Source: a virus. From it: a DNA stretch of 13,011 nucleotides. The notes beneath the pieces were generated by a model. The model was not told the origin of the DNA. It saw only the letters and a list, made by a program, of their open reading frames with translations, and searched no databases. Of this stretch, positions 689-11,453 are shown one piece after another. The stretch lies in the UHGV virus genome UHGV-1813710; one strand, given 5' to 3'. The translations under genes were made by a program, and so were the position numbers. Position 1 is the stretch's first letter. Every line of letters starts with the position of its first letter.

Positions 689-871
689 TCAGCCCCCTCG
701 CTTCGCTGGATGAGTGATTTGTTCCACAGACCAATGAGCAAAGCTGTGGTTGATAGGTACCCACTCACCCGCTAAATTAACTGCATAGCGTAACGGGGCT
801 GGCGGTCTAGCATTATCGACCGGTAAGCAACGTAATTGCGGAACCTTGCAAGTTGCTGTTAATATGTTCAT
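689..871 (-). CDS. Small hypothetical phage protein (60 aa)
   Basis: ATG at 871-869 overlaps the TGA of the upstream CII-like ORF (ATGA overlap), and its own stop abuts the start of the downstream gene. The ORF track gives a longer version starting at 925 that would overlap the upstream gene. Confidence 0.4.
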   Translation of the reverse strand: MNILTATCKVPQLRCLPVDNARPPAPLRYAVNLAGEWVPINHSFAHWSVEQITHPAKRGG

Positions 872-1395
872 GCGATTGATTCTCCACACAGACAATTTTT
901 CGCCAAGGCGCCCGGAGCTGCACACTCGCGGGCGTCAACTTTTTCAGGCTCGCAATAGACACGAGCCACAAGCGTAAGAAACTGCATCAAGATGATATGG
1001 ATCTGGTGCGCTACTTCATTTAGCCCATCGAACTCTCGCCGCGTAATGACGTTGTCTGCTTTGTACTCACGATACGCGTTCGACAATTCCCCCAGCTTTG
1101 CCACCAGCTCAGCAAACTTATCGCCGATATCTTCGTTATCAATTTGATCAAGTTCTGGAAGCAATAAGAAAACGCCCCCCGAGATCCGCGCAATAGTTGA
1201 TGCAAAGTCTTCTGTCTGGCTGAATGCTTGCATCTGCAGCGCGTCATTGACGCTCATGTATTGAGCCCCGGCACCGCCACGTTCATAAACAAGGTTTTCA
1301 AGCTTGCAGCGGCTGTAACCTAAAGCGGCTGACATTGCATCCCAGCCGCCGGGATATGCCCTGATCATTGACTGGTAACACTTGCGAATTTCCAC
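868..1395 (-). CDS. CII-like early regulatory protein (phage CII/CP76-type, tentative)
   Basis: 175-aa ORF directly downstream of the cro-like gene on the same strand. GTG start at 1395 with AAGGGG Shine-Dalgarno 6 nt upstream; first in-frame ATG is 27 nt inside. Position and sequence style recall phage 186 CII-type regulators; the family assignment is from memory only. Confidence 0.5.
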   Translation of the reverse strand: MEIRKCYQSMIRAYPGGWDAMSAALGYSRCKLENLVYERGGAGAQYMSVNDALQMQAFSQTEDFASTIARISGGVFLLLPELDQIDNEDIGDKFAELVAKLGELSNAYREYKADNVITRREFDGLNEVAHQIHIILMQFLTLVARVYCEPEKVDARECAAPGALAKNCLCGESIA

Positions 1396-2830: not shown

Positions 2831-2898
2831 TCCATCAACCGCAGTCACTAGCACTATCAGTGGTTGTGGATACTTAAGAGACTTAGGTGGGAGTTCAA

Positions 2899-3159
2899 AT
2901 GACTAGTTATTACACGTGCTCTTTTTGCGGGATACGCGAGCAGGATGCTAAAAGGATTGTTGCCAAGGGTGGCAGAGATGAGCCAGCAATCTGCTCTAAG
3001 TGCATTGTCTCATGTGTAAATGTCATTATTAACGCAGGAACAGTAATGGAAATAGAGAAAAAAGGCGCCAATAAGGGTGAATTAATCCTTGATATGGAAT
3101 TGGCACCTCGATCAGAAAAAATGTCATTTACTCAGACTGAGGTAGCTCAATCGGATTAA
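2899..3159 (+). CDS. Small protein (86 aa) with a ClpX-type C4 zinc-finger (ClpX N-terminal zinc-binding-domain-like) and no ATPase domain
   Basis: Sequence MTSYYTCSFCGIREQDAKRIVAKGGRDEPAICSKCIVSCVNVII has C-x2-C-x19-C-x2-C and parallels the ClpX N-domain (recalled E. coli motif YCSFCGK…RKLIAG…ICDECVDLCNDII). GGGAG Shine-Dalgarno 6 nt upstream of ATG 2899; the track's 2887 start is GTG. Confidence 0.65.
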   Translation: MTSYYTCSFCGIREQDAKRIVAKGGRDEPAICSKCIVSCVNVIINAGTVMEIEKKGANKGELILDMELAPRSEKMSFTQTEVAQSD

Positions 3160-3403
3160 GCGCCATTGACGCCATTGGTAGCTGAATCAATGAGATCGGC
3201 AAGTTGGATAAACTTCTCTCTACCAGTTGACCTTAAGACACTACTGGCATTAGCAGAACAAGCATCACTGGAATATGCCGCTAGCAAGCATATAGCGGTC
3301 TTTAAAGCGCCGAGTTCTTCAATTAAACCTTCTGGCGTTACGTCGTTATCAAGTGACAGTGTGAAATTTGGCATTTTTATCTCTATGTGATTGGTGTACG
3401 ACA

Positions 3404-3440
3404 GGTGGCGACATTGGCCACCACGCTCTTTAAAAATCTG
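3404..3440 (+). terminator. Hairpin with weak T-tract between the convergent genes (possible terminator)
   Basis: GGTGGC (3404-3409), 7-nt loop, GCCACC (3417-3422), followed by ACGCTCTTTAAAAATCT. The T-tract is interrupted, so termination efficiency is uncertain. Confidence 0.3.
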
Positions 3441-3458
3441 GATATCCCTAGTCGATAG

Positions 3459-3971
3459 TTAGAAGATCATTGGAGCGATATCTATTGGCTCATATGCCGA
3501 TTTGTTCATTAGAAAAAGGCTGGCGCAATGAAAGCATTTGCATTGTTCAAAGTAACAAGAGTTATTCGAATTATATCCAACCTCTCCTGTTGGCTGGAGT
3601 ATCGATACTATTTTTTGTGTGAAGCATTTTGGGCAAAGATGCACGGCTATTTGCATTCCGTTAACAGATTCATTCTTAGAATAAACAAACGTTCCAGAAT
3701 CAAGCTGGTTCAGAGCATAACCTTCAGTCTGGCTTTTAAAGTCTTCGAACTCTGCAATTTTTGCTTTGAGCGTTACGGCTTCTTCCTGATAAAAGCGTGC
3801 AAGCTCAATGAGCGACATGCATTCACGCTGCACAGACGTAAGCTTTAAAACCATATCGCTAACAGCAGAATTTATCTCTGCCTGTGTTTTTGCATTTGAA
3901 ATAACTTTCGCCAAAGCAGTCGTTTCTTTAATTGCCGACATTGCAGCTGTGATTTCAACAAACACTTTCAA
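3459..3971 (-). CDS. Hypothetical protein (170 aa): helical/coiled-coil N-terminal half, Cys-rich C-terminal half; AT-rich moron-like gene
   Basis: Protein-like ORF convergent with the flanking rightward genes; the opposite-strand ORFs (3528-3848, 3808-4008) look like antisense artefacts. C-terminal half has a CPKC…C…CKCFHC pattern suggesting metal binding. TTG start at 3971 with no clear Shine-Dalgarno; alternative ATG at 3941. Sequence is visibly more AT-rich than neighbouring phage genes. Confidence 0.5.
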   Translation of the reverse strand: MKVFVEITAAMSAIKETTALAKVISNAKTQAEINSAVSDMVLKLTSVQRECMSLIELARFYQEEAVTLKAKIAEFEDFKSQTEGYALNQLDSGTFVYSKNESVNGMQIAVHLCPKCFTQKIVSILQPTGEVGYNSNNSCYFEQCKCFHCASLFLMNKSAYEPIDIAPMIF

Positions 3972-4269
3972 TACTCATATAGTCGTTGGGGATATTCAGA
4001 CTAACTGAATTCTTGTTGTTGGGGAATAGCAGGAACCACTGCCGCCTGAAGTGGAAAAATAAACAGGCTAAATAAGTTACATGTGAATCATCAGCAGCAG
4101 ACCAGCCGGCGGTGTCTTAACACCGGCAGTACATAATGAATAGCCACTACTCTCCGGGTATTCATGTATGCACGGACAGCTCGGAAAGACGTAGCCGCCT
4201 GATCCACGTTAAGGATCACACAACCGCATGGGTATTTAGATTCAGGGGCGTTTCGAGTACCCAGCCGGT

Positions 4270-4313
4270 TGTGGTGTAGCGGTTACGCGCTGGTTCAAGT
4301 CCAGTCACCACAA
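4270..4313 (+). other. tRNA-like minihelix (acceptor stem, U8-A9, short hairpin and T-arm, but no anticodon arm)
   Basis: TGTGGTG (4270-4276) pairs perfectly with CACCACA (4306-4312). TA follows at 4277-4278, then a GCG-GTTA-CGC hairpin (4279-4288), then T-arm GCTGG-TTCAAGT-CCAGT (4289-4305) with a canonical T-loop sequence, then an A at the discriminator position. Confidence 0.35.
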
Positions 4314-4339
4314 AATATGTTCCATCGCTGTGTAGTCTT

Positions 4340-4406
4340 GGCGGTTGCAGGGTTTCAACCTTTAGAGGATTGATGACTGTTATTTGTCCTGTAACCGCCC
4401 TTTTTC
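4340..4406 (+). terminator. Long hairpin followed by T-tract upstream of the early operon (candidate terminator or attenuator)
   Basis: GGCGGTTGCAGG (4340-4351) pairs with CCTGTAACCGCC (4388-4399): 12 bp including one G-T pair, 36-nt loop, followed by CTTTTTC (4400-4406). Confidence 0.35.
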
Positions 4407-4493
4407 ACCACACAGAGAGAAGTGCTTGTTGAGTGCTGCCCTGTGTGTGGAGAACGTATCGCGATGTGCATCGCACTTTCTGAGGGTCAAACA

Positions 4494-4868
4494 ATGAGTA
4501 AAGAAAATCGCATGACAGTAGTGCCCGAGTTCTTGGGCGAACTGGATGCAGGGATCTTTGAAAATAAGATTGCTGCAGCGTTAAACAGTACCGCTTTAGG
4601 CGTTCTAAACAACGGCGGTAAAGGTCAGGTTGTTGTTACGTTTGATATTGATCGACTGAGCAATTCGGTTGAAGAAAAACGCGTTGGTATTAAGCATAAG
4701 TTGAAGTTCGTTACACCTACCCCACGGGGCAAAGTGTCAGAAGAAGACACCACGGAAACGCCTATGTACGTAGGGAAAGGTGGCAAGTTAACAGTATTGC
4801 AAGAAGATCAAGGGCAACTGTTTTCAATCGATGGCGCCCCGGATGGAAAATTGCGCCAAACGCAATAA
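4494..4868 (+). CDS. Hypothetical phage early protein (124 aa)
   Basis: ATG at 4494 with GAGGG Shine-Dalgarno 7-11 nt upstream. The track's longer form starts at 4422, but that extension is encoded by a palindromic leader and is Cys-rich. Confidence 0.6.
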   Translation: MSKENRMTVVPEFLGELDAGIFENKIAAALNSTALGVLNNGGKGQVVVTFDIDRLSNSVEEKRVGIKHKLKFVTPTPRGKVSEEDTTETPMYVGKGGKLTVLQEDQGQLFSIDGAPDGKLRQTQ

Positions 4869-4925
4869 TCTTGGCAATTAAATAAACCTCACCATTTTAT
4901 TACTTAATTAAAGCAAGGATAAAAC

Positions 4926-5753
4926 ATGTCACAAGTAGACGGTTCAGCTATTCAACAAATTAAAGATCTTTCACTGGCTGCATTTTATTTAGACCCAATT
5001 AAATCAACTAACTGCCCTGCAGTTATTATTCCGTCTGATTATCAAGTTAAGAGCTTGGAAAGCTTAAATGATGGTCGTTTTCGTTTTCGCGGCAAATTAA
5101 GCACAACTAGCATTGCTGATTTTGTTCGTTATTCATCTGCATACTCTGAAGGTCAGCCGGGCGCCAGTTGTTTTATTGACGCTGACAATATGTGTGCAAC
5201 ATCCGTTTTCAACCTAGGCACGCTTGAGAGCGCAGGCCACGCTGATAACACTGCAGCAATCGCTTTGAAAAAAACAGCACCATTCTGTGCTCTGCTTGAT
5301 TTCAATGGCGAAAAGTCACGCCAAAAGCAGCTTGCAGAATGGCTAGAGGATTGGAGCGACTTCCTCACCGCCTTTGATGCAGACGGCAAGGTACTTCCAA
5401 TTAAACAAGCTGTTAGCGCCATTCGCCGTATTACCATTGAATCAGTGCAAAGTGCGGATCATGAAGATGCTGATTTCAGCGGTAAGCAGTCATTGATGCA
5501 AAGTGTAGAGGCTAAAAGCAAAGAGATCATGCCTGTGGCCTTTGAATTTAAGTGCGTACCTTATGAGGGCTTATCCGAGCGCCGTTTCAGTCTGCGTAAT
5601 AGTATTCTGACGGGGGACACGCCTTTATTCGTTCTGCGTATTGTTCAACTGGAAGCTGTAGAGGAAGAAATTGCAAACGAATTCCGTGATCTGCTCACAG
5701 AGCAATTCACAGGCAAATCAATTGAAACCTTTATTGGTAATTTTAAAGCCTAA
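4926..5753 (+). CDS. Hypothetical phage protein, DUF2303/YfdQ-like (recollection, unverified)
   Basis: 275-aa ORF with AAGGA Shine-Dalgarno 7 nt upstream of the ATG. Its size and the following HD-domain gene resemble the yfdQ-yfdR arrangement of the E. coli CPS-53 cryptic prophage. Confidence 0.65.
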
Positions 5754-5779
5754 TTATTAATAACATTTAATACAGCCTT

Positions 5780-5803
5780 AAGCACCGAGCATATTCGGTG
5801 CTT
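5780..5803 (+). other. Perfect 8-bp stem hairpin in the intergenic region between early genes
   Basis: AAGCACCG (5780-5787), 8-nt loop, CGGTGCTT (5796-5803). The downstream tract is only moderately T-rich, so it may be an attenuator or processing/stability element rather than a strong terminator. Confidence 0.3.
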
Positions 5804-5843
5804 AGTGAAGTGTTATCTGTTTAATGTGTGGAGAAATTAAAAA

Positions 5844-6377
5844 GTGAATAGCCCTTATATTATTACCTTCTCAGGTAAAGCATTTAATTTAATCGAGCCT
5901 CAGCGCGAGCAAATAGTGATCGAGGATATTGCTCATGCGCTAGCGAGAGAAAACCGCTTTAACGGTCACACTAAGGCCGCATACAGCGTTGCCCAGCACT
6001 GCTATCACGCATCATTTTGTGTACCGCCAGAGTTCGCACTTGAGGCGCTAATGCATGATGCTGCCGAGGCTTACATCAAAGATATTCCATCACCAATAAA
6101 GCTTCTTTTGCCAGATTATCGCGCATTAGAAAAACGCGTTGAAATGGCTATCTGCGAACGATTTGGCCTACCACTAGCGCTGAGTAGCTGCGTCAAATAT
6201 GCAGACCTCATCATGCTGGCATCAGAAAAACGCGACCTTGGCATCGTCGATGAAAAACCGTGGCCACTTTTGGAAGGTATTCCAGTTGCTGATTTCACTA
6301 TCGAACCAATGACTGCAGAAGTTGCCGAGCATCTCTTTATGGGGCGCTACGTAGAATTGACGGAGCTATGCAAATGA
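5844..6377 (+). CDS. HD-domain phosphohydrolase (YfdR/YfbR-like nucleotidase family)
   Basis: HD-domain signature H…H…HD: IAHALARENRFNGH…YSVAQHCYH…EALMHDAAEAYIKDIPSPIK, plus VKYADLIMLASEKRDLG. GTG start at 5844 with GGAG 11 nt upstream. Confidence 0.75.
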   Translation: MNSPYIITFSGKAFNLIEPQREQIVIEDIAHALARENRFNGHTKAAYSVAQHCYHASFCVPPEFALEALMHDAAEAYIKDIPSPIKLLLPDYRALEKRVEMAICERFGLPLALSSCVKYADLIMLASEKRDLGIVDEKPWPLLEGIPVADFTIEPMTAEVAEHLFMGRYVELTELCK

Positions 6378-6754
6378 CGCACATCAGTGAAATACCAGCA
6401 GGAACATTAGTTAAGCAAGCGCATGCAGGCGTGAAGCTTATTGCTGAACAGTATCCAGAGGCAGCGGCAATATTACGTGAAGCCATTACACGCTTTGATG
6501 TGTTGCGTGAGGTCCACCAGCTGACCAACCACAAAGTTAAAAAGCCCGTTACTGATGTGAAGCCTAATGATGTTGTTTGTGTTTTTGGTAAGTGCTACCG
6601 GCTGCGATACATCAACTATTACGGGAACCATTCAGTATTGCGCTTTCAGCCAGCTAGAGAGCCACTATCTCCATATACAGAAAATGATGTGATCAGCATC
6701 GATTTAGCAAATGACATTCTGATTGAGGTTGTGGGGGGGCTGAACAATGTCTGA
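6374..6754 (+). CDS. Hypothetical phage protein (about 126 aa)
   Basis: ATG at 6374 overlaps the TGA of the HD-domain gene (ATGA), with GGAG 8 nt upstream; the track uses the in-frame ATG at 6368. Confidence 0.55.
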   Translation: MTHISEIPAGTLVKQAHAGVKLIAEQYPEAAAILREAITRFDVLREVHQLTNHKVKKPVTDVKPNDVVCVFGKCYRLRYINYYGNHSVLRFQPAREPLSPYTENDVISIDLANDILIEVVGGLNNV

Positions 6755-9563: not shown

Positions 9564-9782
9564 ATGGCGAAAGAAGCTAAATTGATGCGCGCGAGCGCGT
9601 GGGGCAAGCGTGAGTTCGAGGTGGGTTCTATTCCTGATAATAGAACTATTAGGCGCTGGATAGAAAATGGCCGTTTGCGTGGCCGGATTGTTGATGGAAC
9701 CATTTTGGTTTATTCATCTGAACGCTGGGGTATTGAGTCTGTTGTATCCCACCACGTACATAATTTAATTAGTGAATCATGA
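9564..9782 (+). CDS. xis: Excisionase (lambda Xis-like)
   Basis: Lies immediately upstream of int with an ATGA overlap. Segment RTIRRWIENGRLRGRIVDGTILVYSSE parallels lambda Xis ETVRRWVRECRIFPPPVKDGREYLFHES. GGAG 9 nt upstream of ATG 9564; the track's 9519 start lacks a Shine-Dalgarno. Confidence 0.75.
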   Translation: MAKEAKLMRASAWGKREFEVGSIPDNRTIRRWIENGRLRGRIVDGTILVYSSERWGIESVVSHHVHNLISES

Positions 9783-10960
9783 TGGCAGCTCGACCACGCA
9801 AGCGTGAAAACCGGCACCTTCCCGATCTGCTGTATTTCGATAAAGTTGCCGGCGTTTATCGCTTTACCCTAATCACGGGAAAGAGAAAATCATTAGGCTC
9901 TGACCGTGCTTTAGCAATCGCTATTGCGCGTGAATATAACAATAGAATGCGACCGGATATAGTTGTATCAGTTGACTCGCTTATTAGTGAATCGGGCGGC
10001 TTGAAGGGGGAATCCCTGCCCTTCTCCAGTCATGTTGATCATATTCTCGCTCGTGCTATCACGGACGAGAAACCAAGCCCTGATACAAAGGCTGACTGGA
10101 TGAATGATGCAAAACGAGTGAAAGAATTCTTCATTGACATTCACTGCTGCGATATTGAACTAGAGCACGTCAATGCGTTCATTCAGCATTATCATGCTGA
10201 AGCATCAGCAAACGTACAAAACCGCAAAGTTAGTTTTCTAAAGAAATTATTTAGTTATGCAGTAGACGAATCGTTAATGTTCGATAATCCAGCAACTAGA
10301 AAGAAAATGCGGAGAATTGAGGGGAAAGTTCGCCAACGCTTATCTTTCGACAATCTGATGGCTATACGAAACGCCGCGGATCGATGGCTGCGAACTGCGA
10401 TAGATCTAGCTCTACAGACAACGCACGCCCGGCTTGAAGTTTCCCGAATTCGCTATTCAATCAAAGAGCCCAAAAATGGCGTGTGTGGCTGTGTGTGGTT
10501 CGACGCTCCAGAGAGTGGGATTTATGGCGTTATGTATATACACAGGCAGAAAGTGCAGCACAAAGAAGCATCACACGTCGCAATACCAATCGGGCCTGAA
10601 CTTAAAAGAATTATTGATGATAGCCGCGACAATGCTGCTAGCCCATACATTGTTCATCGTTTACCAAAACGCAATAATAAGCCAAGCAAAGAGGTTTCAC
10701 ATCCTACACAAGTAGCGCCAGACTACTTGAGCCGGGCATTCTCAACACTTCGAGATGAGCTCGGGATTTGCTCACATCTTGAAATGGATGAACGTCCGAC
10801 ATTCCATGAAATCCGAGCGCTTGCTGCACACCTATTTGATACGCAAGGCATTGACCCACAGGGCCGCATGGCTCACAGCGACGCTAAGTCGACTAAGATA
10901 TACACGCAAAATCATATCGATTGGGTCATGGTGCCGCACGGCGAGATCAAGACGGGATGA
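9779..10960 (+). CDS. int: Tyrosine site-specific integrase, lambda Int family
   Basis: N-terminus RENRHLPDLLYF…GKRKSLGSDRALAIA parallels lambda Int HERRDLPPNLYI…GKEFGLGRDRRIAIT. C-terminus has PTFHEIRALAAHLF (H-x-x-R box) and …STKIYTQNH (catalytic Tyr). Adjacent to xis and to the tRNA-derived att core. Confidence 0.95.
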   Translation: MMAARPRKRENRHLPDLLYFDKVAGVYRFTLITGKRKSLGSDRALAIAIAREYNNRMRPDIVVSVDSLISESGGLKGESLPFSSHVDHILARAITDEKPSPDTKADWMNDAKRVKEFFIDIHCCDIELEHVNAFIQHYHAEASANVQNRKVSFLKKLFSYAVDESLMFDNPATRKKMRRIEGKVRQRLSFDNLMAIRNAADRWLRTAIDLALQTTHARLEVSRIRYSIKEPKNGVCGCVWFDAPESGIYGVMYIHRQKVQHKEASHVAIPIGPELKRIIDDSRDNAASPYIVHRLPKRNNKPSKEVSHPTQVAPDYLSRAFSTLRDELGICSHLEMDERPTFHEIRALAAHLFDTQGIDPQGRMAHSDAKSTKIYTQNHIDWVMVPHGEIKTG

Positions 10961-11037: not shown

Positions 11038-11094
11038 GTCGACAACCTAGAGAAACCAGTGCTGGCGCGGGTTTCAGCGTGTTGAATACGCTAA

Positions 11095-11140
11095 CATGGG
11101 GTGTCGGGGGTCGGAGGTTCAAATCCTCTCGTGCCGACCA
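11095..11140 (+). other. Partial tRNA: 3' about 45 nt of a tRNA-Pro-like gene (anticodon loop to CCA), i.e. the att core repeat at the prophage boundary
   Basis: T-arm GGAGG-TTCAAAT-CCTCT (11113-11129), acceptor 3' strand CGTGCCG, discriminator A and CCA (11138-11140). No complementary 5' acceptor strand (CGGCACG) upstream, so the tRNA is not intact. GGG sits at the inferred anticodon position and the string matches my recollection of enterobacterial tRNA-Pro. Confidence 0.65.
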
Positions 11141-11152
11141 AATAATCCCAAG

Positions 11153-11182
11153 AAAACCAACCTATTATGGGTTGGTTTTTTT
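11153..11182 (+). terminator. Rho-independent terminator (tRNA-gene-type) just outside the att core
   Basis: AAAACCAACC stem, TATTATG loop, GGTTGGTTTT pairing, followed by a run of T residues to 11182. Confidence 0.7.
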
Positions 11183-11453
11183 ATGTCTTCAATTTGTCAC
11201 TACGGCCAATATTACGCGCAGCAAGAAGTAAAAAAGCCCCCAAAGTGATTGGGTGGCGGGCTGAGGAAGTGCTCGAGATGGCTGAAGCAGGACTGATATA
11301 CGACGAATTTAGGGTAGTCTAAAGCTATTTGAATCCTCATGACCACGCTGAGGTTGAGGTATACTGCTTCAGAGCGGGGTAAATAAATTACGTCGCTATA
11401 GACAGACATAGGGATTGTCGCAGTTCTGGTCAGAAGACATTAGGATTGAGAAT

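Follow-up and report, generated by a model that had tools for sequence, protein, structure and literature searches.

Background

tRNA genes may lie within mRNA operons, as in the tufB operon of E. coli, and the 3' trailers of tRNAs may become small RNAs, as with 3'ETS-leuZ. In these systems a tRNA-shaped module sits in a longer transcript and is followed by a spacer and an intrinsic terminator. The prophage leader described here has the same layout, whereas its tRNA-shaped part is truncated and non-decoding, and a stable trailer RNA is putative. Further described RNAs also come close to it:

i) Phage tRNAs (RF00005), among them the gene annotated as tRNA-Gly in Hafnia phage Pocitis76 and unannotated in Hafnia phage yong2. 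Their acceptor stem and T arm (CTGG-TTCAAGT-CCAG) are identical to those of our element, and in yong2-type phages the genomic position is the same. However, our copy is without the D arm, the anticodon arm, most of the variable region and an encoded CCA. The Hafnia parents are atypical as well: the form called variant A below has G33, U1-A72 and G73, and variant B has no anticodon arm.

ii) Acceptor/T-arm minihelices and RNase P substrates, such as pre-tmRNA and the P1/P7 C4 precursor. The likeness consists of 12-13 bp of coaxial acceptor and T stem and a 7-nt T loop, placed within a phage regulatory transcript.

iii) STnc100 (RF02076), a prophage-encoded, Hfq-associated enterobacterial sRNA without assigned function. 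Its canonical copies lie in late regions, for example downstream of stx2 (PMC12370729). An STnc100-like domain occupies the same slot in the homologous leaders of SfV and ST64B, has the same closing stem and ends in a terminator module (TGTGTAGTC, a hairpin and a U-run) that our locus retains. Unlike STnc100, our locus has a tRNA-like body in place of the multi-hairpin body, and this tRNA-like body was then truncated.

The element matches neither the tRNA nor the STnc100 covariance model, and it shares defined parts with both. In the searchable literature we came across neither a tRNA-like RNA placed in this leader slot nor its relation to STnc100, and searches on lambdoid early-leader tRNA-like elements, Hafnia phage descriptions and SfV nut sites gave nothing relevant. 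One GenBank record annotates the full-length form simply as tRNA-Gly.

Organization of the prophage and position of the leader

The window, that is, the whole stretch of 13,011 nucleotides (13 kb) analysed here, is the integrase-proximal portion of a Hafnia-type lambdoid prophage. The closest sequenced phage is Hafnia phage yong2, with 89% identity over 4472-6522. The following features define the position of the leader:

868-1395, minus strand: CII-like gene.
Between the CII-like and cI-like genes, order read on the + strand: cro-like ORF.
1720-2700: cI-like S24 repressor, long, with its own terminator directly after it.
2775-2830, + strand: PL/OL-like region, right after the cI terminator.
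2887-3971: block of three genes, two of them on the minus strand, between the PL-like operators and the leader.
3972-4493, about 523 bp: leader gap with the tRNA-like element, between the three-gene block and yfdP.
4494-4868, + strand: yfdP family gene (124 aa), the first gene past the leader, with its true start at ATG 4494.
9779-10960: integrase, with a partial host tRNA-Ser at the junction.

The PL/OL-like region was recognized by operator repeats in common with the OR region at 1691-1740 (direct repeats D1, D2 and D5, inverted repeats I5 and I14), and yong2 and ST64B show the same order of cI, terminator and TTGACA promoter with operators. The leader lies around 1.4 kb from PL because the three-gene block, with two genes antisense to the early-left direction, intervenes. 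The yfdP assignment comes from PF27127 (YfdP) on an identical Logan contig and from phrog_204; in the relatives, yfdP homologues of 54-90% identity are found directly 3' of the tRNA-like element. Downstream of yfdP follow yfdQ/DUF2303, an HD phosphohydrolase and more early-left genes.

The original prediction took the gap for a non-coding leader, and indeed 3972-4493 holds only short, unconserved ORFs. It also considered this leader unusually long for a promoter region alone. A long promoter region at the start of the early transcript is not what we found: the operators and the PL-like promoter are at about 2775-2830, upstream of the inserted block, and the gap is part of a leader that is found across genera. 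In complete E. coli genomes, the segment 4000-4500 had no homologue except for a 67-nt piece.

Some minor points on this region can be added. The cI-like repressor has 326 aa, which is unusually long, and carries two helix-turn-helix regions before the S24 peptidase domain. The three-gene block consists of o90 on the + strand, a Cys-x2-Cys zinc-ribbon protein (phrog_5259, with a weak "protease" phrog), and of o72 and o170 (phrog_1244) on the - strand. The motif GTGTGGAG near the yfdP start was tried as a special element and discarded: it also forms the Shine-Dalgarno context before other genes, and with 11 occurrences against 5.8 expected it is not enriched.

A tRNA-like minihelix of 44 nt

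The element at 4270-4313 reads TGTGGTG-TA-GCG/GTTA/CGC-G-CTGG/TTCAAGT/CCAG-T-CACCACA-A. Its parts, all on the + strand, are:

4270-4313: the whole truncated tRNA-like element (minihelix), delimited by its isolated fold and by alignment to full-length copies.
4270-4276 with 4306-4312: closing/acceptor stem.
4277-4278: UA dinucleotide.
4279-4288: small hairpin of 3 bp between the acceptor stem and the T arm.
4289-4305: T arm with loop TTCAAGT.
4313: A at the "discriminator" position.

When 4270-4313 is folded alone, the originally proposed structure of acceptor-like stem, small hairpin and T arm is recovered, with the amendment that the T stem is not Watson-Crick throughout, as G4289-U4305 is a wobble pair. 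The A in the place of the discriminator had been described as unpaired; actually T4269 is able to pair with A4313, and therefore the isolated fold has a closing stem of 8 bp. Nevertheless, only part of this structure is kept when 4205-4420 is folded as a whole. The small hairpin and the T arm persist, whereas the acceptor-like stem is not formed in the minimum-energy structure, where TTGTG 4269-4273 pairs with an upstream CACAA in the hairpin 4219-4234/4258-4273.

The isolated fold has a predicted energy of -19.1 kcal/mol (z = -2.3), and 4 of 200 shuffled sequences were equally stable. By itself, this energy would be weak evidence for a real element. The element stands above chance because it is homologous to full-length tRNA-like genes that have the same position in the relatives.

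Regarding tRNA features, the element has a 7-bp acceptor stem (TGTGGTG/CACCACA) and a 5-bp T stem (GCTGG-TTCAAGT-CCAGT) with a 7-nt loop of the TTCRANY type and one G-U pair. The four-arm cloverleaf is absent from 4270-4313, where we found neither a D arm nor an anticodon arm with its 7-nt loop and U33. ARAGORN and the Rfam tRNA and tmRNA models gave no match at 4270-4313, even at E <= 10 on a 201-nt slice, while the full-length relatives reach 51-72 bits with the Rfam tRNA model (RF00005), whose gathering threshold is 29 bits. Neither ARAGORN nor Rfam called a tmRNA (tRNA-like domain plus tag reading frame) anywhere in the window. The statement that this is not a functional tRNA gene was thus borne out by the absence of the D and anticodon arms and by these scans. 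As everything needed for decoding has been lost, the element is unable to decode.

The 8-mer CCAGCCGG had also been noticed as a nearby repeat, with its second copy put at 4262-4269. In fact this copy is at 4261-4268 and makes up the 3' arm of an upstream hairpin that is conserved. The window has 3 copies of the 8-mer, where 0.19 would be expected, and the repeat is not conserved in the relatives.

Full-length relatives and origin by internal deletion

Between cI/PL and the yfdP homologue, yong2 carries a 73-nt RNA gene, which ARAGORN calls tRNA-Gly(CCC) and which scores 51.1 bits with the Rfam tRNA model. Its acceptor stem TGTGGTG/CACCACA and its T arm GCTGG-TTCAAGT-CCAGC match the element of the window. 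Scanning viral and metagenome contigs with DNA patterns gave around 29 related loci; in the related Hafnia-type prophages the full-length form has 73-81 nt. The loci are placed between cII/cI and yfdP or its downstream neighbours, with the exception of unrelated phage tRNA clusters. In this family the acceptor stem, the D arm and the T arm are invariant, while nt 27-46 differ wholesale:

Variant A: loop CGCCCGA, with G33 in place of the near-universal U33; 17 loci, counting single-base variants.
Variant A2: loop CGCCAGA.
Variant B: 81 nt, no recognisable anticodon arm, no call by the Rfam tRNA model at its gathering threshold; 8 loci.

Comparison with these relatives leaves it well supported that the element at 4270-4313 derives, by an internal deletion, from a tRNA-like RNA gene carried by phages, which is full-length in related Hafnia-type prophages. 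Aligned to the 81-nt variant B of two loci (L004 and L015), the window shows a single gap of 37 nt (TAGCTCAGTTGGTAGAGCGTCGCAAGCGTTCATAGCG), which lies between two GTAGC repeats:

4276-4280, + strand: deletion junction GTAGC; in variant B, two GTAGC flank the 37 nt.

The 55 nt upstream of the element are identical between the window and the variant B copy of L004, and the neighbours of the window copy and of the L004 and L015 copies also agree, with the cI side upstream and yfdP-yfdQ-HD downstream. Besides the gap there are two point changes, both structure-neutral: G to T at 4283, in a loop, and C to T at 4305, which gives a G-U pair. The D arm CTCAGTTGGTAGAGC is common to variants A and B and to unrelated phage tRNAs (Dinoroseobacter phage DFL12phi1, which is L011, and L073-L075), and for this reason its absence from the window is a derived state. 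The idea of a relic of a tRNA with an internal deletion was therefore confirmed, with the qualification that the parent is itself a non-canonical tRNA-like RNA.

The sequence of events is as follows. The parent was the 81-nt variant B, which lost the 37 nt between the GTAGC direct repeats, and with them the D arm and the whole anticodon region. Deletion between short direct repeats is typical of replication slippage or of microhomology-mediated deletion. Left over are the closing/acceptor stem, the T arm and a small hairpin that goes back to the former variable arm. Even the parents were non-canonical: variant A has G33, and variant B is without a proper anticodon arm.

Conservation in other prophages, which had been proposed as a check, holds for the full-length form, found at the same position in the relatives, but not for the truncated form, found nowhere else among the around 29 related loci. 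A scan of viral contigs for short forms gave 0 hits, and the metagenome matches were all full-length. The deletion is on record only once more, in Logan SRR2566013, with 100% identity over 740 nt; this record is possibly not an independent one.

Alternatively, the hairpin could have arisen by chance, or integrase recombination could have left a piece of a host tRNA as an att-site scar; we regard such an origin as next to negligible. The isolated fold is only modestly above shuffled sequences (z = -2.3), and prophages do carry tRNA fragments at their att sites. Actually this one has such a fragment, at about 11100-11140. However, the real att junction, where the 3' part of tRNA-Ser lies beside int, is 7 kb off, and the element has both acceptor strands and is collinear with full-length copies at the same internal position in around 29 prophage loci. 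In addition, the pattern of T arm and acceptor stem gave 0 hits in a set of one representative genome per bacterial species, so there is no such host tRNA in that set. The one-gap alignment to variant B of L004 and L015 effectively refutes this origin.

As for the junction itself, ARAGORN calls a "tRNA-Ser" at 11057-11183, which reaches only 19.4 bits with Rfam and is the 3' part of the host tRNA-Ser. The remnant at about 11100-11140 keeps the variable arm, the T arm, the 3' strand of the acceptor and CCA, and is followed by a terminator at 11150-11183. This 3' part adjoins the integrase and therefore marks the junction between prophage and host.

In our opinion, the deleted copy of variant B in its conserved leader slot is probably a decaying or neutral remnant, of which the top half may still be active. 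The simplest reading is that of a remnant, given a deletion of the slippage type and a short form that only this prophage has; rarity and parsimony in the sequence comparison make it the most likely one. Against it, the constant part of the family is exactly what the window keeps, i.e. acceptor stem and T arm. Copies that are otherwise identical (variants A, A2, B and L062) differ by exchange of the whole anticodon region, and the stem substitutions seen in the family (C66U, A67G, C68U and C4305T of the window) all retain pairing as G-U. Furthermore, the two records with the deletion may not be independent, and Kosakonia has a natural 56-nt short form of the STnc100-like domain with the same three-helix architecture. 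The constant top half, the wobble-keeping changes and the Kosakonia form together imply that the top half may be the functional core, and that the truncated copy need not be dead.

Some relatives deserve a separate mention. The element of L062 (metagenome contig Ga0068877_10079721) has 108 nt and the same acceptor stem and T arm; its D loop is enlarged by a hairpin of around 37 nt, its central region is different, and the element is flanked by a stem like hairpin A (see below) and a terminator; this form is intermediate between the tRNA-type and the STnc100-type versions of the slot. A variant A copy in L076 (IMG/VR 2513237377_000003) has the T loop TTCTCTT instead of TTCAAGT and is another allele that breaks a canonical tRNA feature. 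In DFL12phi1, an N4-like roseophage, a tRNA-Ile (L011 2025-2097) equals the Hafnia-prophage tRNA-like RNA, including the parent of the window copy, at all 53 backbone positions outside nt 27-46. The two RNAs differ in the anticodon stem-loop and in part of the variable region, as though a cassette had been swapped, and residue 33 is not U in either of them.

A conserved structured leader

Prophages of many genera (Escherichia, Shigella, Salmonella, Citrobacter, Kosakonia, Buttiauxella, Kluyvera, Erwinia, Serratia and others) have a long structured leader upstream of yfdP, to which the window is homologous between about 4076 and 4493, and the modules of this leader are conserved in 45 yfdQ-linked loci. 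In the window, on the + strand, the leader comprises:

4076-4218: proximal leader, with GCTCGGAAAGACG at 4179-4191 and a small hairpin GATCC-ACGTTAA-GGATC at 4201-4217, just before hairpin A.
4219-4273: hairpin A, with 5' arm CACAACCGCATGGGTA at 4219-4234 and 3' arm TACCCAGCCGGTTGTG at 4258-4273.
4328-4405: T1 module, with CTGTGTAGTC, a hairpin of GGCGGTTGCAGG (4340-4351) and CCTGTAACCGCC (4388-4399), and C plus TTTTT at 4401-4405.
4406-4493: distal leader, with a second CACCACA at 4406-4412, GGAG at 4449-4452 and a GAGGG ribosome-binding site before ATG 4494.
4409-4415 with 4441-4447: distal stem, CACACAG/CTGTGTG.
4461-4474: distal small hairpin, GCGAT-GTGC-ATCGC.

The motifs of the proximal leader are also found in the leaders of Phytobacter (L046) and Buttiauxella (L037). 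Hairpin A corresponds to inverted repeat I6, 88% complementary, and is present in the in-context minimum-energy fold. In the relatives its base CACAAC/GUUGUG is kept and its interior covaries, and 16 of 25 distinct versions had z < -3 when per-sequence duplex energies were compared with those of shuffled sequences. A gapless alignment of the arms with RNAalifold was tried before settling on these scores as the measure and was set aside; since bulges move the arms out of register, no more than the 6 basal pairs came out of it.

Next comes module 2, which measures 56-150 nt and is closed by UUGUGGUG/CACCACAA; directly against the 3' strand lies a 5-bp hairpin, for which six different sequences were seen. 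Module 3 (TGUGUAGUC, a hairpin and a U-run) is terminator-like, and the ribosome-binding site belongs to module 4, together with a small covarying hairpin and a second long stem. Of these, hairpin A, the terminator module and the distal leader are kept in the window, and module 2 is kept in truncated form. T1 is a terminator-like 3' module of the STnc100 type, which forms in the in-context fold and has homologues (TGTGTAGTC, hairpin and T-run) in many genera, and the one of SfV aligns to the terminator part of Rfam STnc100. The distal leader is homologous to those of yong2, Phytobacter, Citrobacter and Kosakonia, with covarying small hairpins.

In the Hafnia phages and in two Phytobacter ursingii prophages, module 2 consists of a tRNA or tRNA-like RNA, and the stem that closes the module is the acceptor stem of this RNA. 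ARAGORN found a tRNA only in the two Phytobacter ursingii loci among the 45 yfdQ-linked loci of other genera, and therefore a tRNA in the leader slot is the exception. In most relatives the slot holds a multi-hairpin domain like the STnc100 sRNA. The Rfam STnc100 model covers modules 2 and 3 with 39.5 bits in SfV (E 4e-6) and 35.1 bits in ST64B (E 6e-5), both below its gathering threshold of 47 bits; it gave no match in the window at E <= 10, nor in 16 other loci at the gathering threshold. Of the STnc100 features, the window has the closing stem 4269-4276/4306-4313 (UGGUG/CACCA), the abutting T arm and T1 (4328-4405), while the inner hairpins, such as CCGGG-AGGCA-CCCGG, are absent from the window and from all tRNA-type copies. 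A closing stem with an abutting 5-bp hairpin is the geometry of all STnc100-like versions of the slot, with their six hairpin sequences, and of the Rfam STnc100 consensus. The Pas sRNAs (bioRxiv 10.64898/2026.05.13.724894) were also considered as the identity of this RNA and were rejected, as they are located in late regions near Q, holin and tail genes and not in the leader.

The 3' arm of hairpin A enters the first 4 nt of the acceptor-like strand (4-5 nt across leaders). A conformational switch or attenuator could be built on this overlap: UUGUG 4269-4273 would pair either with the upstream CACAA or with the downstream CACCACAA, and so gate termination at T1 or processing, and early-left expression. 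The sequence CACAAC ... GUUGUG ... CACCACAAC is kept in nearly all leaders while the interiors vary, for the window as well as for yong2 the minimum-energy in-context fold has the full hairpin A and not the acceptor stem, and in the window, Phytobacter, SfV, ST64B and others the element precedes a terminator-like hairpin. However, the order of element and terminator is not fixed, because the yong2-type phages have no terminator after the element and in L004, L010 and L014 T1 lies upstream of it. Thermodynamic folds also ignore the tertiary structure of tRNAs. We consider such a switch improbable.

[quoted passage not shown] The element is promoter-proximal in the early-left operon, with a terminator-like hairpin downstream, a first gene like N is not apparent, and many relatives have UGCUCUUU (the rrn boxA core) in two places, the 3' arm of hairpin A and that of the distal long stem. 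The put and nut sites are paired, with one in the PL and one in the PR operon (PMC9378689), whereas on the PR-operon strand there is no second copy in the window or in around 50 related loci, which makes this role unlikely. Besides, the boxA-like motif is base-paired, in the window it is degenerate (UGCUGCCC), and put is a two-stem RNA of about 70 nt, unlike our element.

Possible activity of the truncated copy

The element would be transcribed on the + strand within the early-left leader. Any residual activity would be that of the acceptor/T-arm top half, which would serve the leader in its structure or in endonucleolytic processing, and not in translation. Should the element be active, it would most plausibly act in processing or as a structural module that is read through the top half; RNase P is the obvious candidate.

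The original prediction had already named an RNase P or RNase E processing signal, an option that we favour only weakly. As a working minimal module, the minihelix would direct processing of the early-left transcript by RNase P at 4269/4270 and by RNase E or exonucleases on the 3' side. The upstream RNA would then be split from the yfdP mRNA, or the cut would produce the 5' end of an STnc100-type RNA of around 135 nt ending at T1 (4405). This is possible but rather unlikely. In the predicted fold of the isolated element, the 7- or 8-bp stem is stacked on the 5-bp T stem with the 7-nt loop TTCAAGT. Such a 12-bp helix with a T loop is what bacterial RNase P measures (PMC10731613). Position -1 (4269) is U, the anticodon region is dispensable or variable in the family, the changes in the window copy are all structure-neutral, and closing stem plus abutting hairpin recur in every STnc100-like version and in the Rfam consensus. 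RNase P is also known to cut phage small-RNA precursors. Nevertheless, unlike the usual substrates, the element has no single-stranded 3' RCCA, with AAAAU following the stem, and +1 is U and not G. Its 5' leader, instead of being unpaired near the cleavage site, is tightly paired in hairpin A, which competes for nt +1 to +4, a known anti-determinant. Finally, the short form is found in one prophage only.

A broader reading of the slot, which we regard as doubtful, would see in it a module like a tRNA top half with an exchangeable interior. The fixed parts would be hairpin A and a 5-bp hairpin, the former overlapping an 8-bp closing stem on its 5' strand and the latter adjoining the 3' strand of that stem; the interior would be an STnc100-type body, a complete non-decoding tRNA, the 56-nt form or the 44-nt form. 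The STnc100-family sRNAs and the phage tRNA-like RNAs would then be interconvertible versions of one device, the early-left transcript would be matured or gated by a reader of the top half (RNase P or other), and the window copy would represent a minimal yet functional version found in nature.

Returning to the probable remnant, the truncated copy alone would be an ordinary pseudogene-like case, and its value is as a pointer to a wider pattern. Some temperate enterobacterial phages carry a non-decoding tRNA-like RNA in the early-left leader, exactly in the STnc100-like slot of most relatives. Both versions share the closing stem and the top-half geometry, and a conserved hairpin competes for the acceptor strand. 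STnc100 is widespread in prophages of pathogenic E. coli, Shigella and Salmonella, and a link with the architecture and processing of tRNA-like RNAs would give a concrete hypothesis for its function. If this link holds, the minihelix allele and the anticodon-arm variants would be ready-made deletion and swap mutants.

Additional observations on the leader family

Besides the modules described, the segment 3954-4075 of the window has 78-82% identity to Klebsiella, E. coli and Shigella phages. Within it, at 4036-4068, CCAC-tgccg-CCTGA-a-GTGG-aaaaataaa-CAGG forms two interleaved complementary pairs in a pseudoknot-like arrangement, which is found with other spacers directly upstream of hairpin A in L013, L041, L043, L048, L051 and others. 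The rrn boxA-like core UGCUCUUU recurs in the 3' arms of the two long stems across leaders. Structured leaders of 400-700 nt with an STnc100-like domain below the Rfam threshold are present in L067 (1455-1860), L068 (1500-1896) and around 40 other loci. In a Pseudocitrobacter faecalis prophage (L016, 125-326) there is an antisense C4 RNA of the P1/P7 type (79 bits) with its a1/b1 targets and an isrK-like sRNA, and this set lies a few kb upstream of the same leader family.
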